A stretch of 64,000 nt of DNA from an uncultured Gammaproteobacteria bacterium (GCA_964470695.1 CAYYDR010000001.1:465997-529996), one strand, 5' to 3'; positions 19,784-37,063 are shown, numbered from the stretch's first letter. Notes: generated by a model not told the origin, from the letters alone. A program made the numbers and translations.

Positions 19784-21949
19784 ATGAAAAACAAGCTCAT
19801 CTTGATGGCAATTATATTAGTTGCCTCTGGCACCTTGTTATTATCGCGAGGAGTCCAAGCTGCAACGCCAGTTTTGTCCTTATCAACCACTAATGACGGC
19901 GATTATGTTAAATTGGATGTAGCTAACGGAGATGCTGACTCCAGTATTTTGCTATATTATCATAAGAGTAGCGGCGGCTTGCAAGTTAGATATTTAGGGA
20001 AGACCAATGCTAGCGGCAATTACTCAACTAATATAAGTACTTCCGATTATGATGTTATTACTAATGATTCTGTTTATGTGGCCGTTAATAACAAGCAATC
20101 TTCTTTAGTTAGTTGGCCCCTAGTTGCTTCTAGCGGTGGAGCCTTGACCCTTAATAAGACTGGTTTAGTTTTTTCGGTCGGCCAATCCGAAACGCTGACA
20201 GTTGGAAATGTCGGGACTAATATTTTGTACTTACTAAATAATTCTAACCCACAGATTGCTAATGTTAATATCTCTGGCAGCCAGGTAACTGTAAAAGCTA
20301 ATACTTATGGGCAAACAGTAGTAACGGTGTGTGCACTAGGAACGACTTCAAATTGCGCTAGCACCTATGTGACAGTCCAGAATTCGGGCGCTAAAACGCT
20401 TACTTTCAGCCAGAGCAACTTAACCATCGCCGCTGGACAAAGTTCCCAGATCACTATTTTAAATAGTAGTGGAAGCTATACTATTTTAAATAATTCCAAT
20501 CCTAGTATTATTCAGGCCAGTATAAAAGATGCGGTTATAACTTTAACTGCTAGTAATAACAGTGGTACCGCCGCTTTAACCGTCTGTCAGTCTGATATGA
20601 GTGGTTGCGGCATTATTAATGCTAGTTCTGGTAGCGTGAGCTCGTCTACTTTAGTTTTTAACCAAACCGCCCCCTTACTTACGACCGGCCAGACTTTAAA
20701 CGTCGCTATTTCAGGTGGCGGTAGCAACTATAATATCTCATCAAATTCTAATTCCAACGTCCTATCAGCTAGTATTAATGGCACTAATTTGGTTTTAATA
20801 GGGAACAGCGCTGGGTCTTCTACGGTCACTGTTTGTTCCTCAAGCGGTAATTGCAATTCTTTAAGCGCTACGGTTAGTTACGCGACCAGCGGCCCCATTA
20901 CTTTAAGCCAGACTAGCTTATGGCTGCAGGTTGGACAAGCGGTGAGCGTTACTATTTCTGGCGGCACTATGCCTTATAGTATTTTACCTGATACAAATTC
21001 TAATAGTATTTTTTCTAGTAATTTAAATAATAATATTTTGACTCTAACTGGTTTAGCGGCGGGGTCATCTTCGCTTAGCGTCTGCTCGGCCGCCGGTGCC
21101 TGCACTAATTTATCAGTTTTAGTTAATGGCGTTAGCTCTAGTAGTCAATTAACTTTTAGTAATAATAATCTATCTTTGAATGTTGGCGCTGATGCTAATA
21201 TTTCTTTGTTTGGTAATGGTGGATACTATGTTTCTACTAGTAATAACCTTAATGTTGCTTCTATAACCGTCACTGGTTCCCAGGCCAAGGTCTCTGCTTT
21301 AAGCCCTGGCAGCGCTAATGCTACCATTTGCCAGACCGGCGGTCAGTGCAGCGTTTTATATGTAGTAGTGGCTTCCAATGCTTCCACGGTTTCTACCCCG
21401 ACTTTTAGCCAGGTTAATCCGACAATTTCTGTCGGCCAGAGTTCAACTATAACTATTACGGGAGGAACTGGTACTAGTTATAGCCTTTCGTCAAATTCTA
21501 ATCCAACCATAGTCCAAGCTAATGTTAATGGCAGCAGCTTAGTATTACTAGGAAAGAGCCAAGGGAGCGCAGTTTTATCAGTTTGCGCCGCTTCTAATAG
21601 CTGTAATTCTTTAGCGGTTACTGTTAACGCGGTTAGCGCTTCAACTGGTGGCTCATCGGTAACCGGTAATACCGGAAATAGTAATGCTGGCAACTCCGCA
21701 AATACGGGCGCTACTAATAAACCGGTTAAACCAAAATATAAGTTTACACGTTATTTGACAGTAGGCTCTAAGGGGGCGGATGTTACCGCCCTGCAGACTC
21801 GCTTGAAGTATGAAGGAGTCTATTCCGGCCCAATAACCGGTACTTTTGGAGCTCAGACTTATGAGGCGGTTAAAGCTTATCAGAAAAAGAATAAATTGCA
21901 GACTCTGGGCGTAGTCGGGCCAGGAACCAGAGCTTTGCTTAATAAGTAA
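19784..21949 (+). CDS. secreted protein with six Big_2-like Ig repeats and a C-terminal peptidoglycan-binding domain
   Basis: Signal peptide; six units of about 80 aa, each ending in a Cys-x5-6-Cys pair. The C-terminus (GADVTALQTRLKYEGVYSGPITGTFGAQTYEAVKAYQ) is PG_binding_1-like. Confidence 0.75.
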   Translation: MKNKLILMAIILVASGTLLLSRGVQAATPVLSLSTTNDGDYVKLDVANGDADSSILLYYHKSSGGLQVRYLGKTNASGNYSTNISTSDYDVITNDSVYVAVNNKQSSLVSWPLVASSGGALTLNKTGLVFSVGQSETLTVGNVGTNILYLLNNSNPQIANVNISGSQVTVKANTYGQTVVTVCALGTTSNCASTYVTVQNSGAKTLTFSQSNLTIAAGQSSQITILNSSGSYTILNNSNPSIIQASIKDAVITLTASNNSGTAALTVCQSDMSGCGIINASSGSVSSSTLVFNQTAPLLTTGQTLNVAISGGGSNYNISSNSNSNVLSASINGTNLVLIGNSAGSSTVTVCSSSGNCNSLSATVSYATSGPITLSQTSLWLQVGQAVSVTISGGTMPYSILPDTNSNSIFSSNLNNNILTLTGLAAGSSSLSVCSAAGACTNLSVLVNGVSSSSQLTFSNNNLSLNVGADANISLFGNGGYYVSTSNNLNVASITVTGSQAKVSALSPGSANATICQTGGQCSVLYVVVASNASTVSTPTFSQVNPTISVGQSSTITITGGTGTSYSLSSNSNPTIVQANVNGSSLVLLGKSQGSAVLSVCAASNSCNSLAVTVNAVSASTGGSSVTGNTGNSNAGNSANTGATNKPVKPKYKFTRYLTVGSKGADVTALQTRLKYEGVYSGPITGTFGAQTYEAVKAYQKKNKLQTLGVVGPGTRALLNK
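20140..21650 (+). repeat. six divergent tandem coding repeats of about 240 nt (Big_2-like units)
   Basis: Recurrent pattern L(T/V)FSQ..L.(I/L)..GQS..(I/V)T(I/V)...SNSNP.I.(Q/S)A...G..(L/V)......G.(A/S).(L/V)(T/S)VC....C in the translation. Confidence 0.6.
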
Positions 21950-21969: not shown

Positions 21970-22686
21970 ATGGAAAACAATAATAAGTCTATTGCTTATG
22001 GCGTAATCCTCGGCTTGAGTTTGATTATTGCCTCAGCGATAGTAGCTCGGACTTTTCTAGATGTTAAAAAATTAGATAATGTGTTGACCGTGTCCGGTTC
22101 AGCCAAGCAAAAAGTAACGGCTGATTCGGCTCGCTGGACTGCTAATTTTTCTCGTTCTGTTTTTAAGGATCAGCTTAAAGATGGTTATGCTAGCATGAAG
22201 AACGATGAAAAAGTAGTTAATGCTTTTTTTGTGGAAAAGGGTTTTAAGGATATTGAAATCTCACCGGTTTTCATGAATGAAATTTGGAAGAATGACCAGA
22301 ATGCGCCTAAGGAATATAATTTAGTCCAGAATGTTCAGATAAAATCTGATGATGTTTTAAAGATGAAGGAAATAGCTAAGAGCAGCGACCAGTTAGCAGC
22401 GAAGGGAATAATATTCTCCGCTAATCCGGTTGAATATTATTACTCTAAATTACCTGAGTTAAGAGTTTCCTTATTACCAGAGGCAATTAAAGATGCTAAA
22501 AATAGAGCTCAAGCCATTGCCGAAAGTAGTGATCGGGGCGTGGACGCGATTAAATCTGTCTCTATGGGCGTGGTACAAGTAATGCCAGTCGGTTCAATTG
22601 ATGTTTCTGATTATGGCTCTTATGATACCTCTAGTATTGATAAGGAAGTTATGATTACCGTTAAGACTGTTTTCGGCTTGAAGTAA
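21970..22686 (+). CDS. SIMPL-domain (DUF541) protein, membrane-anchored
   Basis: N-terminal TM anchor; overall pattern similar to 32167..32904, with AIKDAKNRAQAIAESS as the SIMPL helix. Confidence 0.75.
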   Translation: MENNNKSIAYGVILGLSLIIASAIVARTFLDVKKLDNVLTVSGSAKQKVTADSARWTANFSRSVFKDQLKDGYASMKNDEKVVNAFFVEKGFKDIEISPVFMNEIWKNDQNAPKEYNLVQNVQIKSDDVLKMKEIAKSSDQLAAKGIIFSANPVEYYYSKLPELRVSLLPEAIKDAKNRAQAIAESSDRGVDAIKSVSMGVVQVMPVGSIDVSDYGSYDTSSIDKEVMITVKTVFGLK

Positions 22687-22804: not shown

Positions 22805-24640
22805 ATGGCTAAATTGTTTAAATTACATTCAGAATTTAAACCCGCTGGCGATCAACCAGCCGCAATTAAGAAGCTGCAAGCGGGATTAGACAAGGGTCTG
22901 CGTTATCAGACTCTTTTAGGCGTAACGGGCAGCGGTAAGACTTTTACGGCCGCTAATTTGATTACCGCTGGGGATAGGCCAGTCTTGGTTATGGCGCCTA
23001 ATAAAGCTTTAGCCGCTCAGCTTTACCGAGAATATAAGAACTTTTTCCCGGAGAATGCCGTTCATTATTTTGTCTCCTATTACGACTATTATCAGCCGGA
23101 GGCCTATTTGCCTATTACCGACACTTATATTGATAAAGAGGCCATGATTAACCAGGAAATAGACCGTTTGCGGCATGGCGCAACCTCGGCCCTTGTTTCT
23201 CGCCGAGACGTTATTATTGTCGCTTCGGTTTCTTGTATTTATAATCTCGGCGTCCCCTCTACTTATTTAGAAGCAAAATTGGTTTTGGAAAAAGGTAAAC
23301 CCATGGTGCGAACTGATTTAATTAAACAATTAATTAAGATTCAGTTTACCAGGACGAGCGGAGAAATAAGCCGAGGTGAGTTTAGAGTACGCGGTGATGT
23401 TTTTGAAATACGGTCAATGTCTGAAAATATTATTTATCGCTTAGAATTAAACGGCCAGAGCATTAGCGATTTATCAATAATTGATAATACGACTAAAAAT
23501 ATCATGGGCAATTTGGAAGAAATAGTTATTTTTCCGCCTAAACATTTCGTATCCACTAAACCGCAGATAGAAGCCGCTATTAAAAATATCCAGGAAGAAT
23601 TAAAAGACCGTTTAGCTTATTTTAAAAAAGAAGGATTACTGCTAGAAGCGGAAAGACTAGAAAGACGAACTCGCTATGATATGGAAATGCTCCGTAGCCT
23701 TGGTTATTGCCATGGCATTGAGAATTACTCGCGCCATTTAACTGGCAAATTAGCGGGCGAGGCGCCTGATTCTCTATTAGCTTATTTTCCCTGGAAAGAC
23801 GGTAGGCCGGATTTTTTAACGATCATTGATGAGTCGCATATTGCCGTGCCGCAGGTTAGGGGTATGTATAATGGCGATCAGGCGCGTAAGAAAATTTTGG
23901 CGCAGTATGGCTGGCGTTTGCCGTCCGCGCTTGATAATCGCCCTTTAAAATTTAATGAATTTGAAGAAAGGATAGGGCAGGTAATATTTACGACGGCTAC
24001 TCCTGGAGATTTTGAATTGAAATATTCTAAAAATATTGCCGAACAGGTCATACGTCCGACCGGTCTAGTTGATCCGGAAGTGGAAGTTAGGCCGGTATTT
24101 AATAAGAAAGAAAATTATAGCCAGATTAATGATGTCATGAAAGAAATTAGCAAGATTGCCTCCCTAGGCGAGCGGGCGATTATTAATACTTTAACTAAGA
24201 AGCAAGCTGAAGATTTAAATACTTATTTGAATGGCCAAGGCTTTAAGTCTAACTATCTTCACTCCGATATTAAGACTTTTGAACGGACCGATATTTTAAG
24301 GCATTTCCGAGAGGGGAAGTTTGATGTTCTTATCGGCGTTAATCTTTTGCGGGAGGGCTTGGATTTGCCTGAGGTTACTTTAGTCGCGATTTTAGATGCT
24401 GATAGAGAGGGATTCTTGCGTAGTGAGACATCTTTGATGCAAACCATGGGTCGTGCTGCCCGTAACGTCAAGGGAAAAATTATCTTGTATGCTGATAAGA
24501 TTACCGGTTCAATGCGTCGGGCCATGAAAGAAGCGGATAGGAGACGTAAAAAACAGTTAGAGTATAATAAGAAGTATAATATAACGCCGCAAAATATTAC
24601 TAAAAAGATAGAAGAATTCTTGGACGCGGCGGAAAAATAA
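22805..24640 (+). CDS. uvrB: excinuclease ABC subunit B, lacking the C-terminal UVR domain
   Basis: GVTGSGKT, YYDYYQPEAY, DESH, and helicase motifs through GRAARN. The protein ends at ...KKIEEFLDAAEK with no ..FE.AA..RD.. hairpin. Confidence 0.95.
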   Translation: MAKLFKLHSEFKPAGDQPAAIKKLQAGLDKGLRYQTLLGVTGSGKTFTAANLITAGDRPVLVMAPNKALAAQLYREYKNFFPENAVHYFVSYYDYYQPEAYLPITDTYIDKEAMINQEIDRLRHGATSALVSRRDVIIVASVSCIYNLGVPSTYLEAKLVLEKGKPMVRTDLIKQLIKIQFTRTSGEISRGEFRVRGDVFEIRSMSENIIYRLELNGQSISDLSIIDNTTKNIMGNLEEIVIFPPKHFVSTKPQIEAAIKNIQEELKDRLAYFKKEGLLLEAERLERRTRYDMEMLRSLGYCHGIENYSRHLTGKLAGEAPDSLLAYFPWKDGRPDFLTIIDESHIAVPQVRGMYNGDQARKKILAQYGWRLPSALDNRPLKFNEFEERIGQVIFTTATPGDFELKYSKNIAEQVIRPTGLVDPEVEVRPVFNKKENYSQINDVMKEISKIASLGERAIINTLTKKQAEDLNTYLNGQGFKSNYLHSDIKTFERTDILRHFREGKFDVLIGVNLLREGLDLPEVTLVAILDADREGFLRSETSLMQTMGRAARNVKGKIILYADKITGSMRRAMKEADRRRKKQLEYNKKYNITPQNITKKIEEFLDAAEK

Positions 24641-24643
24641 TTT

Positions 24644-25228
24644 TTGTTTAATTATATGATTGAGTACGAAGCTACTTTTACGAATATTGATAAAGATGAA
24701 ATAAGGGGTCGGCTTAAACAAGCTGGCGCGGTTTTAATAAAACCAGAATTTTTGCAGAAGCGTTTAAATTTTACTCTGCCGTCTGGTCATGAAATTAAGG
24801 GCGGCTGGCTCAGAGTTAGGGATGAGGGTGATAAGGTGAGCTTAAGTTTAAAAATAATTGATGGCGATAAAATAGATGATCAAAAAGAAACTTGTTTATA
24901 TATTGATAGTTTTTCCGAGGGCATCGCTTTATTAAAATCCTTGGGCTGCCAGGAAAAAGCCTATCAGGAAAGCCGTCGAGAAATTTGGGATCTTGATGGA
25001 GTTGAAGTAGTTATTGATGAATGGCCATATTTAGAGCCTTATGTAGAAATAGAAGGAAATTCTGAGGAGGAGGTAAAAAAAGTTAGTGCTAAATTAAGCT
25101 TTGATTATAGTAGGGCGGTATTTGGTTCAGTGGATATTCAATATAATAAAAAATATGGTTTAGATCGTGATAATATTAATACTATTGGTAAAGTGACTTT
25201 TGATGGTCCTAACCCTTTTATTAAATAG
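24644..25228 (+). CDS. CYTH-domain protein (CyaB/thiamine-triphosphatase-like tunnel fold)
   Basis: IEYEATF occupies the ExExK position; also WLRVRDEGDKVSLSLK and VVIDEWPYLEPYVEIE. The track start is TTG at 24644; the first ATG is at 24656. Confidence 0.65.
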   Translation: MFNYMIEYEATFTNIDKDEIRGRLKQAGAVLIKPEFLQKRLNFTLPSGHEIKGGWLRVRDEGDKVSLSLKIIDGDKIDDQKETCLYIDSFSEGIALLKSLGCQEKAYQESRREIWDLDGVEVVIDEWPYLEPYVEIEGNSEEEVKKVSAKLSFDYSRAVFGSVDIQYNKKYGLDRDNINTIGKVTFDGPNPFIK

Positions 25229-25248
25229 ACTAGTCTTGAAATAAAATC

Positions 25249-27756
25249 ATGTCAGAAAAAATGATAATCCGCGGCGCGCGGATGCACAATTTAAAAAATA
25301 TAAACTTAGAAATACCGCATAATAAACTGACAGTTATTACTGGCGTTTCGGGAAGCGGCAAATCGTCGTTGGCTTTTGATACGATTTTTGCGGAAGGACA
25401 GAGGCAGTACGTTGAATCCCTGTCGCCCTATATGCGTCAATTCTTGGGCCAGAAAAAGCCGGCTGATGTTGATGAAATAATTGGTTTAGCCCCTTCTATT
25501 TCTATTGATCAAAAAGCCTTATCGCACAATCCTCGCTCCACCGTCGGAACTCTAACCGATATTTATGATTATCTGCGCGTTCTCTATGCTCGGGTAGGAG
25601 AAGTATATTGTCCGGTTTGCGGAACTAAAATTGAAAAGTTAACCGTTGAGGAAATGGTTGATATTATTATTAATCGCGGCCAGGAGCAGAAACAGGAATA
25701 TGTGGAAATATTATCGCCGGTTATCCGCGACCGCAAAGGGGAATATTATCAGCTTTTATATAATTATCTCGGTTTGGGCTATAGCGAGGCCAGGGTAGAC
25801 GGACAGCTTCATTCTTTGCGTGATCAAATAAAATTATCACCAAAACAAAAGCATGATATTGATATTGTGATTGATAAGATAATGTTAAGCGATCAGACCC
25901 GCTTATTTGAGGCCGTGGAAAACTCTTTAGAGTATAGTAAAGGGTTAGTAATTGCTAAATATAAAAATCAGGAGTTTTTATTATCGTCTAACTGGACCTG
26001 TCCTAATGACAATTTTTCTTTTCCTGAAGTTGAGCCGCGCCTTTTTTCTTTTAATTCTCCCCATGGCGCTTGTCCGGAATGCACTGGTCTGGGACGAGTA
26101 GATTTTTTTAAGGATGAAAAATGTCCTAAATGTTCAGGGGAAAGACTGAGGCCAGAAGCTTTATCGGTCCGAGTTAATAATAAGAATATTGCCGAAGTGG
26201 CTAAATTGCCGATTAACAAGACTTTAGATTTTTTCAATAAGTATTATGAAAAAATGACTAAACGTCAGCTGGCTATCGCGGAAAATGTCGTCGTTCAGAT
26301 TATTAGTCGTTTAGAGTTTTTATTAAAAGTGGGTTTACATTATATTTCTTTAGAAAGGGAGGCCCATACTTTATCAGGCGGCGAAGCGCAGCGTATCCGC
26401 CTATCATCGCAAATCGGTTCCCATTTATCAAGAACTTTATATGTTTTAGACGAACCGACTATCGGGCTGCACGAACGCGATACTGAGCGTTTGATTGATA
26501 CTCTAAAAAAGTTACGTGATAAGGGAAATACCGTTATCATTGTTGAGCATGATGAGCGGACAATATTAGAATCAGATTATTTAGTTGATTTAGGGCCATT
26601 AGCCGGCGTACACGGCGGTGAGATTGTGGCGATTGGCGAAACTAAGAATTTACTGAATGATAAAAAAAATAAAACGGCTTTTAAAGAGTCTTTAACTCTC
26701 CAATATCTGAATGGCGAGCGATCTATTGATTTGCCAGAGAAGAGACGAGAACAAAACCATGGTAGTCTAAAAATCAGAGGTGCTTACGCTAACAATTTAA
26801 AGAATGTAAATTTAGATATTCCTTTAGGTCGTTTGGTCGGAATTAGTGGTGTATCTGGTAGTGGCAAGTCATCGCTTTTATATGATGTCATATATAAAAA
26901 TATCACCCATATTAAGAATAGGCCGGGTAAGGCTAAGTTAGAAGAAGTTAAGGAAATAAAGGGAGCCGAATATATTAATAAGGTCATTGTTATTGACCAG
27001 TCACCCATCGGGCGAACGCCGCGGTCTAATCCGGCTACTTATACCGGCATATTTACTCCAATCCGTGATTTTTTTGCCTCTCTGCCTGAAGCCAGGGAAA
27101 GAGGCTATTCTATCTCTAGATTCTCGTTTAATCGCCCAGGTGGGCGCTGTGAGGCCTGTGAAGGGGCCGGGGCTAACCTAATAGAGATGCACTTCCTACC
27201 CCCGGTTTTGGTAGAATGCGAAGTCTGTCGTGGCAAGCGTTTTAATCGGGAAACCCTACAAGTAAAATATAAGGGAAAGAATATTGCCGAGGTGCTAGAC
27301 ATGACAATTGATGAGGCCATTACTTATTTTGATGGCAATTATTTAATTACTGATAAGCTCAAAGTGTTAGCTTCAGTGGGGTTAGGTTATATTAAAATTG
27401 GTCAGAGCGCCACGACTTTATCGGGCGGCGAAGCCCAGCGCGTTAAAATCGCTAAGGAACTGACTCATACGCTAGGCAAAAGAACCCTATATCTTTTAGA
27501 TGAACCGACTACAGGCCTGCATTATCATGATATTGATATGCTACTAGGAGTTTTAAATAAGCTAGTGGAAAAAGGGAATTCAGTTTTAGTAATTGAGCAT
27601 AACATGCACATGCTTAAGGCCATGGATTATATTATTGATTTGGGCCCGGATGGCGGTGAGGACGGCGGCCGGCTAGTTGCTAGCGGCCAGCCGGAAGACA
27701 TCGCCCGCGAACCAAAGAGTGTGACGGGGAAATATCTTAAAGAATATTTAAAATAA
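25249..27756 (+). CDS. uvrA: excinuclease ABC subunit A, short form lacking the insertion domain
   Basis: Two ABC modules (GVSGSGKSS twice, LSGGEAQR twice). A UvrB-binding-domain-like region is present. CPECTGLG is followed after 13 aa by CPKCSGERL. Confidence 0.95.
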
Positions 27757-27759
27757 TTT

Positions 27760-28623
27760 ATGAGTTTATCAATTATCCTAGCCTTTGGGGCGATGTTTGG
27801 TTGGGGAATAGCGGATTTTTTAATTCAGAAAACAGTCAAGAAAATTGGCAGTCTAGAAACCTTAGCCTGGATTACTGTCCTGGGCGCTATTATTTTAATT
27901 CCGCTGATTTTATATGAAGGATTAAATTTAACTAGAACTAATGTAATCTTTTTGATTTTTCTAGGGGCTGTAACATTTACAGCCGGGCTACTGGATTTCA
28001 AGGCTTTGGCGATTGGTAAGCTAGCGGTTATGGAGACGATTATGGCTATTGAATTGCCGCTTACTATTTTATTAGGTGTTTTAGCTTTCCAGGAAAGACT
28101 AAATTTTTTGCAAGTAGCTTTAGTTACTTCAGTGTTTGTCGGAATAGTTTTGGCTTCAGTAAATTTTAAGAATATCCATCATCGGGATTTTTTAGAAAAA
28201 GGATCATTATTAGCGATTGCTTCCGGGTTGCTCATTGCCTTTGTTAACTTTTTTTCCGCTGATCAAGCTAAGTCTTTGAGTCCGTTAATGGCCATTTGGT
28301 TCCCCTGGTTATCTTGCGGGATGATTTGTCTGATTTATATTAGCCGTTTTAAGAAAAATCATTTTAAGAATTTTGTAAAACAAAGTTTTGGGCATTGGCG
28401 GTTAATACTAATAGTCGCAGTGATAGATTTAGGCGCTTGGTTATTTTATGCTTTTGCCGTGGCTAAAGAAGAATTATCAATTACCATCGCCATTACTGAA
28501 AGCTATATCGTCGTGGCTATAATCCTGGGCGTTCTTATTAATAAAGAGAAAATAAGGCCAGCCCAATACTTAGGATCGGCTCTGGCTATAATTAGCAGCT
28601 TATTAATTGGTTTTATCAGTTAA
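27760..28623 (+). CDS. EamA/DMT-superfamily transporter
   Basis: 10 TM segments as a duplicated 5-TM EamA architecture. Confidence 0.8.
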   Translation: MSLSIILAFGAMFGWGIADFLIQKTVKKIGSLETLAWITVLGAIILIPLILYEGLNLTRTNVIFLIFLGAVTFTAGLLDFKALAIGKLAVMETIMAIELPLTILLGVLAFQERLNFLQVALVTSVFVGIVLASVNFKNIHHRDFLEKGSLLAIASGLLIAFVNFFSADQAKSLSPLMAIWFPWLSCGMICLIYISRFKKNHFKNFVKQSFGHWRLILIVAVIDLGAWLFYAFAVAKEELSITIAITESYIVVAIILGVLINKEKIRPAQYLGSALAIISSLLIGFIS

Positions 28624-28637
28624 TTAGGGTTTAACAT

Positions 28638-28952
28638 ATGAAGTTGAAATTTGCGGATCGGGTTTACAAATTAACCGCCCAGATTCCTAAAGGAAAAGTG
28701 GCTACTTATCAGAGCATTGCTATTGCTATGGGGCAAGCTAAGGCTAGTCGCGCTGTCGGTAATGCCTTAAATAAAAATCCTTATGCTCCGCAAGTTCCTT
28801 GCCATCGCGTCGTTCGGTCTAATGGTGAGATCGGCGGATTTGCTTCGGGGTCTAATAAAAAAATAAAAATGCTTAAGAGCGAAGGAGTAATTATTATAAA
28901 TAATAAAGTAGATTTGTCCCAGCATGGTTACCAATTCAAAGCTAAAAGATAA
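28638..28952 (+). CDS. MGMT-family methylated-DNA-protein-cysteine methyltransferase domain protein
   Basis: Active-site PCHRVV; NPYAPQVPCHRVVRSNGEIGGF. Confidence 0.85.
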   Translation: MKLKFADRVYKLTAQIPKGKVATYQSIAIAMGQAKASRAVGNALNKNPYAPQVPCHRVVRSNGEIGGFASGSNKKIKMLKSEGVIIINNKVDLSQHGYQFKAKR

Positions 28953-30111
28953 ACTTAAATCCATCCCTAAAAAACCAGGGGTTTATTTTTGGTTAGACAA
29001 AAATAAGAAAGTTTTGTATGTTGGACGAGCGACTAGCCTTCGTAATCGTCTTAGCCAGTATTTCCAGAAGAATATCAGTCCCCGTATTGCGGAAATGGTG
29101 GCAGCCGCCAGTGATATCAGATATGAAGTTACCGAAACTATCCTAGAGGCGATTATTTTAGAGGCTAAAAACATTAAAAAGTATTGGTCCAAGTATAATA
29201 TAGTTGATCGCGATGATAGATCTTTTATTTATGTGGTTATACCTAAAACTGATTTTGCTAAACCGCTAATTGTCCGTGGCACTGATTTAAAAAAGTTTTC
29301 TGGCTCCAGGGTGGCCAAGATTTTTGGTCCTTATCAATCTTTTTATCTTCTGCAAAATGCCTTACGCTTAATTCGCCGGGTTTTTCCTTATGGCAATTGC
29401 CAGCCTAGTAGCGGTCGAGCTTGTTTTGATTATCAAATTGGTCTTTGTCCAGGCGCTTGCGTTGGAGCTATTAACGCCAAGGAGTATCGCCAGAACATCA
29501 ATAATATCATTTTGCTTTTATCGGGAGAAAAGAAGCGTTTAATTAAAAAATTAATGAAAGAAAATCCTGATAAGATAAAGGCCTTAAAACATCTTCAGGA
29601 CGTTTCTTTATTAACTAAAGAAGAAAATCTGGGCGAAGAAAGAGTCAGCCGTTTAGAGGGCTATGATATTTCTCACTTACAGGGCAAGGAAACCTATGGC
29701 TCAATGGTGGTATTTGAAAATAATGAGCCGATTAAGCAAGAGTATCGCTTATTTAAAATAAAAGAAGCTCCGGCGGGTGATGATGAAAGAGCCTTGGCCG
29801 AAGTCTTATTGCGTCGTTTTAAGCATCTAGAGTGGCCTAGACCGGATTTAGTTATGATAGATGGCGGTACGCCGCAAATAAGCTTTTTATCACGAGTTCT
29901 CTCAGCCAATAATATTAGTGTCCCCTTGGTCGGAATTTCTAAGTTTGGTAGCGATAAATTAGTTTTTGCGGCTGGCAGTAATAAATCCCTGCGTGATTTA
30001 GCGGAAAATATTAAACCAATTTTGCTTAAAGCTAGGGAAGAGGCACATCGTTTTGCTAATCGGGGACGTAAAAAAAGTTTGAAATATCCCAAGAAAATTG
30101 CTAAAATTTAA
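28924..30111 (+). CDS. uvrC: excinuclease ABC subunit C, minimal form (GIY-YIG plus RNase H-like nuclease; no UVR, no HhH2)
   Basis: GVYFW...LYVGRATSLRNRLSQY (GIY-YIG), Cys cluster CQPSSGRACFDYQIGLCPGAC, then GYDISH, GDDERA, DLVMIDGG, EEAHRFA. 395 aa, shorter than the 610-aa E. coli UvrC used for comparison. Confidence 0.85.
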   Translation: MVTNSKLKDKLKSIPKKPGVYFWLDKNKKVLYVGRATSLRNRLSQYFQKNISPRIAEMVAAASDIRYEVTETILEAIILEAKNIKKYWSKYNIVDRDDRSFIYVVIPKTDFAKPLIVRGTDLKKFSGSRVAKIFGPYQSFYLLQNALRLIRRVFPYGNCQPSSGRACFDYQIGLCPGACVGAINAKEYRQNINNIILLLSGEKKRLIKKLMKENPDKIKALKHLQDVSLLTKEENLGEERVSRLEGYDISHLQGKETYGSMVVFENNEPIKQEYRLFKIKEAPAGDDERALAEVLLRRFKHLEWPRPDLVMIDGGTPQISFLSRVLSANNISVPLVGISKFGSDKLVFAAGSNKSLRDLAENIKPILLKAREEAHRFANRGRKKSLKYPKKIAKI

Positions 30112-30138: not shown

Positions 30139-31083
30139 ATGAATCCTCTAGAGAAAATTTTTGCTGGCCATGGGAAAGAACAGCAGGAAACAGCAAGTCC
30201 CGCCAGTATTCGTTTAGAGTTTTTTCGCCATAGTAAACAGGGGCCGCAGACAGCTGGCATGCAGGAGTATAATCGTCGTTTGACTGAGGGGCCGGATGGT
30301 GGTCGCGTAATGGCTACAGAAGCCGGCAAAGACCGTAATCCTGACCCAGAAGTCGGCTTGGCTTACGGTTCACCGCGCGATCGCGCCCAGGAAACCGCTT
30401 ATCGCCAGCTTTTAACTAATCAAGAGGAAATTACAGCTAGTAGCACACTAGAAGATATTGAGGCATTAATTAAAGAGAAGTTACCGGTCGGATCAAAAAA
30501 GATTGTTGATGAACGTCTAAACTTTAATTGGGAAGGGAGCCAGAAATTTAATGAAGTGGGCATGGATCATTTTCTTAAAGTTAAAGATACTTTGAGATTT
30601 TTGGTAGAAGAGAGTGATGATTTAGCAGTTGAAGCTAAGGATAAAGAATCTACCGCTTATTCACGAGCAGCCGCCAATACCGCTGAGATAGTTAAAAAAT
30701 ATTTGCAAATATTACCTAATTGGGAAAAGGTGGTCGCAACTGATAAGGAGCGCGGCGAAGACGAGAAAAAAGATTATGCTAAACATGGCAACGAAATGCA
30801 ACGTTTTCTTGGTTCGCATGGCGCGACCGTGGAAAATTTTTTGTTAAAGCTTATTGATAAGCTAGAAGGTCGTGCGGCCGTTTTAGAATTTATTAAAAAT
30901 TTGCCCGATCAGAATAATTTTCAGTTTAATGATGGTTATTCAATTAAATTATCATCTCAAAATGGTCAGCCAGAAATATTGGTTACCTATCATGATAAAT
31001 CTTGGTCAGTTAAGCCCGAATTATTAGATGAAATAATTGCTGATCGCACTATTTTAGATCAGAAGATTAAAGAGGCTATTTAA
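30139..31083 (+). CDS. histidine-phosphatase-superfamily-like protein (divergent)
   Basis: FFRHSKQG (RHG-like), GSPRDRAQETA (SP..RA.QTA) and LGSHGATVENFL (second catalytic His region). Confidence 0.5.
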   Translation: MNPLEKIFAGHGKEQQETASPASIRLEFFRHSKQGPQTAGMQEYNRRLTEGPDGGRVMATEAGKDRNPDPEVGLAYGSPRDRAQETAYRQLLTNQEEITASSTLEDIEALIKEKLPVGSKKIVDERLNFNWEGSQKFNEVGMDHFLKVKDTLRFLVEESDDLAVEAKDKESTAYSRAAANTAEIVKKYLQILPNWEKVVATDKERGEDEKKDYAKHGNEMQRFLGSHGATVENFLLKLIDKLEGRAAVLEFIKNLPDQNNFQFNDGYSIKLSSQNGQPEILVTYHDKSWSVKPELLDEIIADRTILDQKIKEAI

Positions 31084-32166: not shown

Positions 32167-32904
32167 ATGAAAAAAAGTTATGTCTGGCTAGCTACTCTAG
32201 GAATATTAGCGGTAGCGGCTGTAGTCATCGTGGCTTTAGTGATGGCTAATAAAACCAAAAATGAAGATAGGTTTTCGGTTACCGGCTCCGGCACTGTCTA
32301 TGCCAAGGCCGATATCGCTAATTTAGAAGTGGGTTTAAAGACTGGCGCTAAGAAAACCGCCGCTGAAGCGACTAAAGAAAGCACGGCCAAAATGGATGAA
32401 ATTATCCAAGAAATAAAGAAACTAAATATTGATGAAAAGGATATTAAAACCTCCGGCTATAATTTAACCCCAGTTTATAATTGGACCGATAAAACCGGCC
32501 AGCAATTAATCGGTTATGAAGTCTCACAGAATTTAACTCTAAAAATTAGAGACTTAAATAAGATTGGCGATGTTATTGCTAAAACCACCGAAAAGGGCGC
32601 TAACCAAATTGGCAATATCAGTTTTACTATTGATGATGAATATGCTTTGAAGAATCAGGCTAGGGAATTAGCTATTCAAAAGGCTAAAGAGAAGGCGGCC
32701 CTGATTGCTGAGCAGTCTGGCATGAAATTAGGCGAAGTTAAGAGCGTTTATGAAAGTTCTGAGCCATTTGTAAGCCCTATGGCCTATTCTAACGCCAAAT
32801 TAGATATGGGGACTGGACGCATGGAAGTTTTGACTAGCCCTAATATACAGACCGGGCAGAACGAAATTAAAGTTGAAGTAACTTTGATGTACGAGGTAAA
32901 ATAG
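32167..32904 (+). CDS. SIMPL-domain (DUF541) protein, membrane-anchored
   Basis: GYEVSQNLTLKIRDLNKIGDVI and ARELAIQKAKEKAALIAEQSG are typical SIMPL segments. Confidence 0.85.
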   Translation: MKKSYVWLATLGILAVAAVVIVALVMANKTKNEDRFSVTGSGTVYAKADIANLEVGLKTGAKKTAAEATKESTAKMDEIIQEIKKLNIDEKDIKTSGYNLTPVYNWTDKTGQQLIGYEVSQNLTLKIRDLNKIGDVIAKTTEKGANQIGNISFTIDDEYALKNQARELAIQKAKEKAALIAEQSGMKLGEVKSVYESSEPFVSPMAYSNAKLDMGTGRMEVLTSPNIQTGQNEIKVEVTLMYEVK

Positions 32905-34804: not shown

Positions 34805-37063
34805 TTATTGATTTAAGTTAATTTTATAGATTGCTTCGCCGTCCAAGAAGTAGGCTGTTTTGCCTGGTTCATCAATAGCTAGATCTTTAGGTTGGGCTAA
34901 GGAATCTACTTGGTACTGATTTATAAGTTTGCCATCTTTTTTAGCTAGGACTATCAGGCGCTTAGAGTTAGCTTCAAATATATATATGTAGTTAGAGCCA
35001 ACAATTAGCTTACTGGCGTTAGTGACGGCTGGCGAGATAAGGGCGGATTGGTAATCGGCTTTTTTACTCATGAATAATTTTATTACTTCGCCATTATTTT
35101 TTAAGACATAGATATCGCCATCAATTATATATAAATCAACGGCCTGGCTCAGATCAATAACTTCTTTCAGCCAATCACTTTTTGAGCCATAGACGCTAGC
35201 CGTTTTGGCATATTTATAAATCTGATTATTATTTTTAGCGATAATATAAAGGAATTTATCCTGGTATATCTTAAAGCTAGTTAGTCCGGCCGCGGGGTCT
35301 AAATTTGGCACAGTCGTGCGAGTGCTAGCTTTAGTTTTAATATTGAATTGGACAACCGCATCATTATCCCAATAGTATAGACGATCTTTGGAATTAGAAA
35401 GAGGATTCATGAGATTATTCGCGCCTTTAATATCTAGTTTAGTTGATGAAGCGGAATTAGCCGTTAATTCATAGATGACCGGTCCGCTGGCGCCGTATAG
35501 TTTGCCACCGGAAAAGATCAGATTATTTATACCCATCCCGGCTAAGTCATTAGTTTTAGCAGCTTGGCTAATACGGATAATTTTTTGTAGCCTCTCTTGA
35601 TTGACCCGGAGTTTTTCCGCTAATTCGTCATAAACTTTTTGCTGGTCGGTTTTTTCTTTAGGCAGGGAGGCTAGCAGTGATTGAGCCTCGGTCAATATTT
35701 TAGCAGCCCCGGCCTCGTCATTATAGAGGAGGTGCGAGTCTATTTCATTGCCTTTATCTTGTATAGATGTTACTAAATTATTAAAATTAGTTTGGGCAAT
35801 TTTTCTATCTTGGCGCCAGTTAGTAATGAAGATGCTGCCCACAAAAATAATTATTACTAAGCTAAGTGAAACAAACAATAATCTATTTTTACTGTTAAGG
35901 CTTTTGAACCAGTTGAGCAGATTGGAAATGAACCCTGACCAAAGCTGGGCATTGAATAACCCCTTTAGCCCAGCAGTAAATTGGCTAAAAGAAGCTTTTA
36001 AGCGTCCAGTTTTTTTCTTGAAGAATATTTTTTCTTTAATTAAAAAGGAATCCGACCGGGCCATATTAAGGCTCTTTACAGTCCCTAGGTCTAGCGGCGG
36101 CTGATTTTCGTCATTTGATGGTTTATGATATTTCTTAAGAGCCGGCACTAAGTTGGGCCTCAAGCCTTTTAATATCCGTCCAATATTTTTAGCTATTTTG
36201 GAAAAATTAATTAGGCCGGCGGGAGCCAACATTTGTTCAGTTTTTTGCTCCGTATAATTTAGGGACGAAATAGAACTATGAGCAGAGGAGTTATCTTCAA
36301 TTTCTTCTCTAGTTTCTTGGCCGGATAAGCCAGTAGTATTCTTAATAATTATTCCTAAGAAGGGAACATAGGTGTTTATTTTAGAGAGGACATTCTTGAT
36401 TTGCTCCGCGGCGGTAATAGGAGGGAGTTTAGTAATAATATTAATCATTTCTTTGCCGGAGAGATATTCTGGCAATGATTCACTAGCAAAAACGAAGTAT
36501 GAACCAACTGGCACCTCGCCGCTTATTACCGAAGAGAAAAGTTTAGGTATTTTTAATTGAGTCGCGTCCGTATCTAGGCCGGCCGTTTCGTTAGCCTCGG
36601 AAGCGCTCGCCTCAACATTTATTAACTCGTAATCGCTGCCATGGCGGTAAATTAATAGGGCGCGGTTGCGTCCGAAGTTAGCAAAATGTATTTTATTTTC
36701 ATAAACAACGCCGATGGTAATATTGGTAGCGGCCGGATTAAGCTTTATTTTTTCGTCTGTCAAAAAATCAGTGAGATTCTTATTGCTTTTGGTAATGGCG
36801 GCTTCAAAAATATTCTCTATTTTTAAGCCTTCTATTTTATCGCGAAATAATATTTTTTCGTCATTATAGTAGTTATTTTCTAGGGAGCTTATCAGAAAAT
36901 CAAAAATTTTACGGCCATCGGTTTTCTTGCCGCCTATTTCAGCGAGGATGAATATTTTTCCCGCTAAATTTTCTTTAAGCGAATCTGGCTGAGCGACATA
37001 AACATCACTTAACCCCGTCGTTTTAGCAGAGTTGAGGATGATTGAAGCGGTCTTGTTATACAT
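34805..37063 (-). CDS. single-pass membrane protein: cytoplasmic degenerate PP2C/SpoIIE-like domain plus extracytoplasmic beta-propeller-like domain
   Basis: FANFGRNRALLIY sits where PP2C has GDSR, and FASESLPEYL where it has SDG. One TM segment (LLFVSLSLVIIIFVGSIFITNW); repetitive beta-rich C-terminal half. Confidence 0.55.
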   Translation of the reverse strand: MYNKTASIILNSAKTTGLSDVYVAQPDSLKENLAGKIFILAEIGGKKTDGRKIFDFLISSLENNYYNDEKILFRDKIEGLKIENIFEAAITKSNKNLTDFLTDEKIKLNPAATNITIGVVYENKIHFANFGRNRALLIYRHGSDYELINVEASASEANETAGLDTDATQLKIPKLFSSVISGEVPVGSYFVFASESLPEYLSGKEMINIITKLPPITAAEQIKNVLSKINTYVPFLGIIIKNTTGLSGQETREEIEDNSSAHSSISSLNYTEQKTEQMLAPAGLINFSKIAKNIGRILKGLRPNLVPALKKYHKPSNDENQPPLDLGTVKSLNMARSDSFLIKEKIFFKKKTGRLKASFSQFTAGLKGLFNAQLWSGFISNLLNWFKSLNSKNRLLFVSLSLVIIIFVGSIFITNWRQDRKIAQTNFNNLVTSIQDKGNEIDSHLLYNDEAGAAKILTEAQSLLASLPKEKTDQQKVYDELAEKLRVNQERLQKIIRISQAAKTNDLAGMGINNLIFSGGKLYGASGPVIYELTANSASSTKLDIKGANNLMNPLSNSKDRLYYWDNDAVVQFNIKTKASTRTTVPNLDPAAGLTSFKIYQDKFLYIIAKNNNQIYKYAKTASVYGSKSDWLKEVIDLSQAVDLYIIDGDIYVLKNNGEVIKLFMSKKADYQSALISPAVTNASKLIVGSNYIYIFEANSKRLIVLAKKDGKLINQYQVDSLAQPKDLAIDEPGKTAYFLDGEAIYKINLNQ

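Follow-up and report, generated by a model that had tools for sequence, protein, structure and literature searches.

A compact UvrABC locus of Patescibacteria in which UvrB and UvrC both lack an intact UVR domain

Introduction

The closest described relatives of the system treated here are the canonical UvrABC machines of nucleotide excision repair (NER) known from Escherichia coli, Bacillus, Thermotoga and Deinococcus. In E. coli and Deinococcus radiodurans, 3' incision requires the UvrB-UvrC interaction, in which the UVR hairpin of one protein binds that of the other (PMC10085695). Here we describe a uvrB-uvrA-uvrC gene cluster at positions 22805-30111 of a DNA stretch of 64,000 nucleotides (hereafter the window), which was deposited as part of an uncultured Gammaproteobacteria bacterium (CAYYDR010000001.1). 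In this cluster both hairpins are truncated or absent, and further accessory modules of the three proteins are missing as well.

The contribution of several of these modules has been described in model systems. UvrB domain 4, the UVR domain, is autoinhibitory. The inactive RNase H1 domain forms the central platform of UvrC according to Seck et al. (PMC10085695). The C-terminal (HhH)2 domain aids 5' incision and is dispensable in D. radiodurans, where UvrC lacking (HhH)2 keeps dual incision with a DNA affinity near that of the wild type, and where UvrC-N alone makes both cuts (PMC10085695). E. coli UvrA with a deletion of residues 290-400 is active, with poorer damage discrimination and a less impaired transcription-coupled repair (PMC3025350). 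A census of GIY-YIG proteins from 2006 lists the architectures C4-UvrBb-EndoV-HhH (UvrC), C4-ChoCTD (Cho) and C4-UvrBb variants, and contains no C4-EndoV form without UvrBb and HhH (PMC1564403). In the literature, we found no description of UvrB or UvrC without UVR in the Candidate Phyla Radiation (CPR) or Patescibacteria, nor of a natural UvrA without the insertion domain.

Results

UvrB ends directly after the helicase core

Positions 22805-30111 of the window are filled by six + strand genes that follow one another closely or overlap. The three repair genes among them are:

22805..24640, + strand: uvrB, 611 residues; complete helicase core, beta-hairpin and UvrA-interaction domain; without linker and without UVR domain (domain 4)
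25249..27756, + strand: uvrA, 835 residues; both ABC modules and the UvrB-binding domain; without the insertion (DNA-binding) domain
28924..30111, + strand: uvrC, 395 residues; GIY-YIG, beta/Cys4 region (UvrC_M), a shortened helical hairpin and the active RNase H domain

Each of the three proteins passes a curated equivalog cut-off of NCBIfam. UvrB reaches 892.5 bits with TIGR00631 (cut-off 750.1) and 912 with NF003673 (cut-off 743), and UvrA 1208 bits with the class I UvrA model NF001503 (cut-off 1147). UvrC passes TIGR00194 with 305.9 bits (cut-off 285.45) in two pieces and stays below the cut-offs of the other UvrC equivalog models.

UvrB is about 60 residues shorter than canonical UvrB. 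The Pfam families PF17757, PF00271, PF12344 and PF04851 are all matched, corresponding to the superfamily 2 (SF2) helicase core, the beta-hairpin and UvrA-interaction domain 2. The NCBIfam UvrB models are matched only up to position 597 of 653-658 (TIGR00631: 597 of 658). Likewise, alignment to the 661-residue PDB chain 9gy7_E runs residue for residue through position 597, including the motif YYDYYQPEAY, and the window protein stops four residues later, directly after the last helix of domain 3:

24602..24640, + strand: UvrB end, KKIEEFLDAAEK followed by the stop codon

Canonical UvrB extends past this point with a linker of about 25-40 residues and the UVR hairpin, and UvrBs of sister lineages run on with MKEAAKNLEFELAAILRDEI. 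No match to UVR (PF02151) was obtained for the window UvrB in a Pfam scan that detects the domain in E. coli UvrB at residues 634-667. A custom UVR hidden Markov model (HMM), built from 125 hairpins, did not match the window UvrB either; the control proteins score 6e-12 (E. coli UvrB) and 1.6e-15 (E. coli UvrC).

In some sub-lineages of the clade described below, the linker and UVR domain of UvrB are replaced by a low-complexity tail of 15-36 residues, rich in K, R and E, which is not a UVR motif (loci L041, L042, L049-L053, L060, L062, L063, L067, L070, L072, L075, L080 and L081). This tail could bind DNA or a partner protein.

UvrC keeps both nucleases and a vestige of the UVR hairpin

Along UvrC the following parts are recognised:

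28924..29223, + strand: GIY-YIG 3'-incision nuclease domain, residues 1-100; Y21, Y32, R42, E80 and N92 conserved
29398..29460, + strand: four-cysteine cluster, C159, C167, C175 and C179
29530..29607, + strand: vestige of the UVR hairpin, residues 203-228, KKRLIKKLMKENP|DKIKALKHLQDVS; the 15-residue tip with the FE.AA..R motif is deleted
29608..29649, + strand: short linker, residues 229-242, in place of the inactive RNase H1 domain of about 135 residues (PF22920; E. coli 251-368)
29650..30084, + strand: active RNase H-like 5'-incision domain, residues 243-387; D248, D286/D287, D313 and H375 conserved
30073..30111, + strand: UvrC end, KSLKYPKKIAKI followed by the stop codon; canonical UvrC adds about 60 residues of (HhH)2 here

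In a Pfam scan, the window UvrC matched only GIY-YIG (PF01541, 4e-10) and the active RNase H domain (PF08459, 2e-35), with no match to UVR (PF02151) or to HhH families. The same scan places UVR at 205-237, PF22920 at 251-368 and HHH/HHH_5 at 557-608 of E. coli UvrC. Pairwise alignment to E. coli UvrC leaves three gaps in the window protein: 15 residues at the tip of the UVR hairpin, with the break at KKLMKENP^DKIKALKHLQ; about 135 residues, which correspond to the inactive RNase H1 domain; and the C-terminus, where the protein stops 11 residues past the RNase H domain at the point where (HhH)2 would begin. PF22920 was found neither by Pfam, nor in this alignment, nor with an RNase H1 HMM. Only the two flanks of the UVR HMM are matched (HMM positions 1-11 and 29-40), so that 15-17 residues of the hairpin tip are deleted. 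In the 220-residue chain 2nrt, the RNase H domain is matched by residues 23-159; the (HhH)2 part of that chain thus has no counterpart in the window UvrC.

The AlphaFold2 model of UvrC is compact (mean pLDDT 92.4, pTM 0.72). In it the shortened hairpin consists of two helices (203-213 and 216-223), and the RNase H fold follows directly. Both nuclease domains were recognised by Foldseek: GIY-YIG matches 1yd6 with a target-normalised TM-score of 0.9, and the RNase H domain matches 2nrt, 8b0q and 3c65. A full-length structure of UvrC or Cho was not found in the PDB by this search. In 141 diverse sequences, the catalytic residues and the four cysteines vary little or not at all.

The original prediction, made from the window sequence by itself, had proposed a UvrB without UVR domain and a UvrC with only a UVR vestige and no (HhH)2, in which GIY-YIG, the cysteine cluster and the RNase H motifs are retained. 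This description is borne out by Pfam, the custom HMM and the PDB alignment for UvrB, by Pfam, HMMs and the E. coli alignment for UvrC, and by conserved residues and matching folds for the retained parts.

The truncations are genuine and conserved

Related loci were collected by a scan of GTDB with one genome per species. A relative was found in 170 species, and the best 80 loci, with 57-85% identity, were fetched. They derive from metagenome-assembled genomes (MAGs) of Falkowbacteria, Patescibacteria or Parcubacteria. A metagenome scan seeded with UVR-containing short UvrCs provided 80 further, outgroup loci, many of them with the same gene order.

Missing domains might have been split off by a frameshift or lost in assembly, and the original prediction had named domains encoded just downstream as the finding that would speak against it. 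The next open reading frame (ORF) starts 3 nt downstream of uvrB and 27 nt downstream of uvrC. In all six frames of the 64-kb window, the UVR HMM detected nothing beyond the two flanks of the UvrC vestige (best E = 0.085), and the HhH2 and RNase H1 HMMs detected nothing at all. In the 80 clade loci, no ORF of at least 50 residues up to about 10 kb away matched UVR, HhH2 or RNase H1. The significant (HhH)2 matches and all RNase H1 matches fall on UvrCs of the 80 outgroup loci, with none in the 80 related loci.

The same protein ends recur in independent NCBI, JGI, ENA and Logan assemblies of Patescibacteria and Falkowbacteria, from which the closest homologues come. The closest 120 UvrB homologues (clusters) have 610-618 residues and none carries PF02151 or HhH; the closest 120 UvrC homologues (clusters) have 384-425 residues, with neither UVR nor HhH in any of them. 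Across 119 distinct clusters formed at 90% identity, the UvrB sequences are 82-94% identical. In the related loci, UvrC ORFs, taken from the earliest possible start codon, have 385-445 residues. Complete UvrA ORFs have about 830-863 residues in nearly all cases, and UvrB ends as in the window except in the sub-lineages with a K/R/E-rich tail. The truncations are therefore genuine and conserved. An assembly, frameshift or gene-calling artefact in a single contig, against which both the recurring ends and the downstream sequence in all frames argue, is practically inconceivable.

UvrA lacks the insertion domain

UvrA is reduced too. Pfam places the UvrB-binding domain (PF17760) at residues 132-238 and finds PF00005 in four stretches, corresponding to the two ABC modules; a region of PF17755 type was not found. 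In the alignment to 9gxk_A, residue 285 of the window protein is paired with residue 306 as well as with residue 421, which leaves a gap of 115 residues. Nine spacer residues thus stand in for the entire insertion domain:

26071..26145, + strand: zinc module 2 of UvrA, with a 9-residue spacer between the two CxxC pairs, against an insertion domain of 107-134 residues in other UvrAs

The insertion domain is absent in 68 of 69 clade loci. Among outgroup loci it is absent in 17 and present in 16.

The UVR domain is missing from both partners together

In every fetched locus that contains these genes, the order uvrB-uvrA-uvrC is held, and the same architecture and gene order occur in more than 60 species-level genomes. 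The guess of the original prediction that the locus belongs to the CPR proved right, given that the relatives are Patescibacteria and Falkowbacteria. Many GTDB genomes of the clade are titled 'uncultured Gammaproteobacteria bacterium' (binchicken MAGs; e.g. L010, L012, L015, L020 and L024). Given uvr genes that share about 70-88% identity with those of Falkowbacteria, the titles are evidently wrong.

When loci with both genes complete were compared, UVR was absent from both UvrB and UvrC in 65, present in both in 21, and no mixed locus was seen. These counts include two false negatives at the UVR HMM threshold that were corrected by eye (UvrB in L108 and UvrC in L135). One extra case, L164 (P0248, 47% identity), also lacks UVR in both proteins. 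For the deep clade members P0242, P0243, P0244, P0246 and P0247 and for P0250, the contigs reached were short or not syntenic. The precomputed Pfam annotation agrees, with PF02151 on P0250, the nearest outgroup, and not on clade members. The 65 loci without UVR form one clade and share the boundary of the 15-residue deletion, so that the paired loss of UVR probably goes back to a single evolutionary event.

The distribution of the other UvrC losses is wider. A HMMER search with the window UvrC against 1.8 billion representative proteins gave 17,828 matches. The 140 best clusters at 50% identity with at least 370 residues were classified with the UVR, RNase H1 and (HhH)2 HMMs, which had been validated on E. 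coli:

104 of 140 clusters: short UvrC with the full 41-residue UVR hairpin, without RNase H1 and without (HhH)2
15 of 140 clusters: canonical UvrC
5 of 140 clusters: (HhH)2 kept, without RNase H1
3 of 140 clusters: RNase H1 kept, without (HhH)2
13 of 140 clusters: without all three (UVR, RNase H1 and (HhH)2)

RNase H1 is hence absent from UvrC in 122 of these 140 nearest clusters, a loss common to most Patescibacterial UvrCs. Since 104 clusters lack (HhH)2 and RNase H1 and nevertheless keep UVR, these losses are not coupled to that of UVR. Judged from this distribution, the loss of (HhH)2 and RNase H1 is old, widespread and separate from the UVR loss. The losses are nested: the short UvrC is the most widespread, UvrA without insertion domain is narrower, and the UVR pair was lost only in the clade of the window. 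From this nesting the order of losses follows: UvrC was shortened first, UvrA then lost its insertion domain, and the UVR pair went last.

Seven of the 13 clusters without all three domains are the nearest relatives of the window and mutual best matches. The other six lie outside its clade, and their nearest neighbours keep UVR; the contigs examined carry no uvrB. These six may represent independent losses. A second group of short UvrCs, P0304 and P0387 (L163 1106-2272; L167 5202-6446; L168 5192-6436), has a degenerate or absent UVR hairpin, which the nearest relatives keep. They lie in a different neighbourhood (uvrC, holin_4_2, secG, SBP_bac_5 and RNase J), on contigs without uvrB, and may be a case of independent loss.

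For the original prediction, which had read the UVR and (HhH)2 truncations as one correlated loss, the outcome is divided. The joint absence of UVR from both partners is clean across loci, although it rests on what looks like one event in one clade. The coupling of (HhH)2 loss to UVR loss has to be given up, because the 104 clusters without (HhH)2 keep UVR, and in 21 loci UvrB keeps it too. The suggestion of a minimised NER machine was right and understated, since the UvrA insertion domain and the UvrC RNase H1 domain, which it had overlooked, are lost as well.

The reduced proteins are under purifying selection

Altogether five modules are lost. UvrA is without its insertion domain and UvrB without linker and UVR, and UvrC has lost three parts, namely the tip of its UVR hairpin, inactive RNase H1 and (HhH)2. 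In UvrC, both nuclease active sites and Cys4 are intact, as are the beta-hairpin and the ATPase motifs in UvrB and, in UvrA, the domain that binds UvrB. Comparison of uvrA, uvrB and uvrC with the related genomes gave nonsynonymous divergence (dN) of 0.02-0.36 and saturated synonymous divergence (dS), with omega at 0.017-0.081 where it was computable.

Truncated genes could also be relics of a pathway that is being lost during genome reduction. Patescibacteria genomes are reduced, and several domains were lost one by one, which would fit such a decay. Against this stand the low omega at saturated dS, the intact frames and identical lengths in more than 60 species, the invariant catalytic residues, and the high identity of UvrB across its 119 clusters. 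Decay is thus very improbable. On these comparative data, we consider it fairly probable that the locus encodes a functional, stepwise-minimised UvrABC system which is fixed in a clade of Falkowbacteria-type Patescibacteria, and in which UvrC is recruited independently of UVR.

Recruitment of UvrC without the UVR tether

With both UVR hairpins gone, the textbook UVR-UVR docking step cannot occur in this system, and a different mode of UvrC recruitment may reasonably be inferred. In the mechanism that we propose, UvrA2 would still load UvrB at lesions. Damage might be discriminated less well, a cost that a genome of 0.7-1 Mb could perhaps bear. UvrB would act without domain 4, and the autoinhibitory and dimerising roles described for this domain would go with it. 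UvrC would reach the UvrB-DNA preincision complex without the UVR-UVR tether, its N-terminal half or RNase H domain touching the UvrB core together with the distorted DNA, in a manner similar to E. coli Cho. Such a secondary interface between UvrB and UvrC probably existed already in UVR-containing ancestors, so that the tether would no longer have been needed. After the loss of one hairpin, its partner would have been without function and could be lost too. As a speculation, small genomes and very small cells may need less damage discrimination and less of a tether.

Only six substitutions in UvrB and four in UvrC are fixed in the clade relative to UVR-containing sisters, and they are scattered along the proteins. 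The scan for clade-specific fixed substitutions marked no patch for a compensating interface. The small number of such substitutions suggests that the docking surface predates the loss of the tether. It would also suit a system without any protein-protein recruitment. In that case, UvrB and UvrC would be uncoupled, and the short UvrC would read only the DNA bubble or kink left by UvrB, or act after UvrB has departed. The isolated C-terminal half of D. radiodurans UvrC does cut 3'-nicked DNA without binding UvrB (PMC10085695). Intact lesions, however, are not incised by GIY-YIG and C-terminal fragments that lack the UvrB-binding region (PMC10085695), and the tightly conserved three-gene cluster argues for one machine. 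Uncoupled action of UvrB and UvrC is therefore unlikely.

Several points weigh against a UVR-independent but functional UvrABC. The interaction of UvrB and UvrC is needed for 3' incision, so that losing the tether should be costly unless it is replaced. When the insertion domain was deleted by engineering from Ecm16, a UvrA-like protein, DNA binding was abolished. Because the co-loss probably happened once, the table of 65, 21 and 0 loci probably does not amount to 86 independent observations. Among the structures searched, we found no solved complex of UvrC with UvrB on the UvrB-DNA preincision complex. Finally, the searches for missing domains covered the window and, in each related genome, about 20 kb, and a separate UVR, HhH or adaptor protein may be encoded elsewhere.

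Neighbouring genes and possible supply in trans

The three further genes of the cluster are:

24644..25228, + strand: CYTH-domain gene (Pfam), 194 residues; between uvrB and uvrA; accessory, in 19 of 64 related operons
27760..28623, + strand: EamA-family membrane protein gene (Pfam), 287 residues; between uvrA and uvrC; in 11 of 64 related operons
28638..28952, + strand: one-domain O6-alkylguanine-DNA alkyltransferase, 104 residues; PCHRV site; overlaps the uvrC start by 29 nt; in 18 of 64 related operons

The CYTH (triphosphate tunnel metalloenzyme) gene starts 3 nt after uvrB and ends 20 nt before uvrA, and keeps this position where it occurs in related operons. The alkyltransferase consists of the DNA_binding_1 domain only, with the PCHRV active site kept, and also holds its operon position in the relatives that have it. 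Its place next to uvrC may reflect a functional link between the handling of alkyl lesions and NER. Directly after uvrC, a protein of 314 residues is encoded (30139-31083); no significant Pfam family matches it, and the 80 related loci contain no homologue.

The lost functions might be supplied in trans, by an adaptor or DNA-binding protein that bridges UvrB and UvrC or replaces (HhH)2. Such a protein could be encoded elsewhere in the genome, and inspection of each related genome was confined to about 20 kb. Within the operon, the CYTH protein, the small alkyltransferase and the 314-residue protein are candidates. Extra operon genes are indeed wedged in, with a spacing of 3-29 nt or with overlap, and the K/R-rich UvrB tail of some sub-lineages could point in the same direction. 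The operon passengers are not universal, however: none of them, EamA included, occurs in more than 19 of the 64 operons, and the 314-residue protein is confined to the window among the loci compared. Neither the window, read in all frames, nor the ORFs of the 80 loci gave a UVR or HhH2 signal. Supply in trans is accordingly a quite improbable explanation.

Outside the cluster, two SIMPL/DUF541 paralogues (21970-22686 and 32167-32904) lie on either side of the uvr genes. A secreted-looking protein of 721 residues (19784-21949) has repeats rich in Ser, Thr and Asn, a weak match to a pilus-N family and a C-terminal peptidoglycan-binding domain. A minus-strand protein of 752 residues (34805-37063) has no significant Pfam family.

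Discussion

The locus encodes a variant of the known UvrABC system of NER and not a new kind of machine. The UVR-UVR hairpin pair is the only mapped contact between UvrB and UvrC, and a clade lacking both hairpins is a natural experiment on it. That both hairpins are deleted, with the three genes under strong purifying selection, suggests a second and sufficient interface between UvrB and UvrC. The paired loss also gives evolutionary support to the view that the two hairpins serve mainly each other. The stronger proposition, that a natural UvrABC works without the UVR-UVR coiled coil, (HhH)2, the RNase H1 platform and the UvrA insertion domain all at once, is put forward tentatively. If true, the essential contact would not be made by the hairpins but by the UvrB core with either the N-terminal half of UvrC or its RNase H domain. 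The 395-residue UvrC and the tail-less UvrB would then form the smallest natural dual-incision complex, and a good target for the missing structure of the incision complex. The compact proteins may suit cryo-EM, and the nested deletions offer natural variants with which to dissect the contribution of each accessory domain. NCBI records label the UvrCs of the clade only as 'GIY-YIG nuclease family protein', so that the repair capacity of Patescibacteria may be under-called.

Compared with known systems, the three proteins are orthologous to UvrA, UvrB and UvrC of canonical UvrABC and share with them the ABC ATPase modules, the UvrB-binding domain, the helicase core, the beta-hairpin, GIY-YIG, Cys4 and the RNase H sites. 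The canonical proteins have in addition the UvrA insertion domain, UvrB domain 4, the UvrC UVR tip, PF22920 and (HhH)2.

E. coli Cho (YdjQ), which cuts 3' of lesions in UvrB-DNA complexes, resembles the window UvrC in having GIY-YIG and Cys4 without the UvrB-binding UVR hairpin, and presumably works on UvrB-DNA via another surface. According to Moolenaar et al. 2002, Cho and UvrC reportedly bind different UvrB domains. Unlike the window UvrC, Cho has a specific C-terminal domain and no RNase H nuclease, and it occurs alongside a full UvrC and a UvrB with UVR, whereas the window UvrC keeps the 5'-incision RNase H domain and is the sole UvrC at the locus. That the window protein is itself a Cho was ruled out, as it scores 55.4 bits with NF007833 against a cut-off of 367 and contains the RNase H nuclease.

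Closer are the short Patescibacterial UvrCs with UVR (GIY-YIG, UvrC_M, UVR and RNase H; about 400-460 residues). As in the window, RNase H1 and (HhH)2 are lost, and the gene often lies in the same uvrB-uvrA-uvrC cluster, often beside a UvrA without insertion domain. They differ from the window in the 41-residue hairpin (..FEKAA..R..I.AL) and in a UvrB that keeps linker and UVR in 21 of 21 loci.

Engineered truncations, namely UvrB* or UvrB without domain 4, D. radiodurans UvrC without (HhH)2 and UvrA delta290-400, each mimic one feature of the window and show partial activity. They are single deletions, and among them loss of the UvrB-UvrC interaction blocks 3' incision. In the clade of the window, by contrast, all of these deletions occur together under purifying selection.

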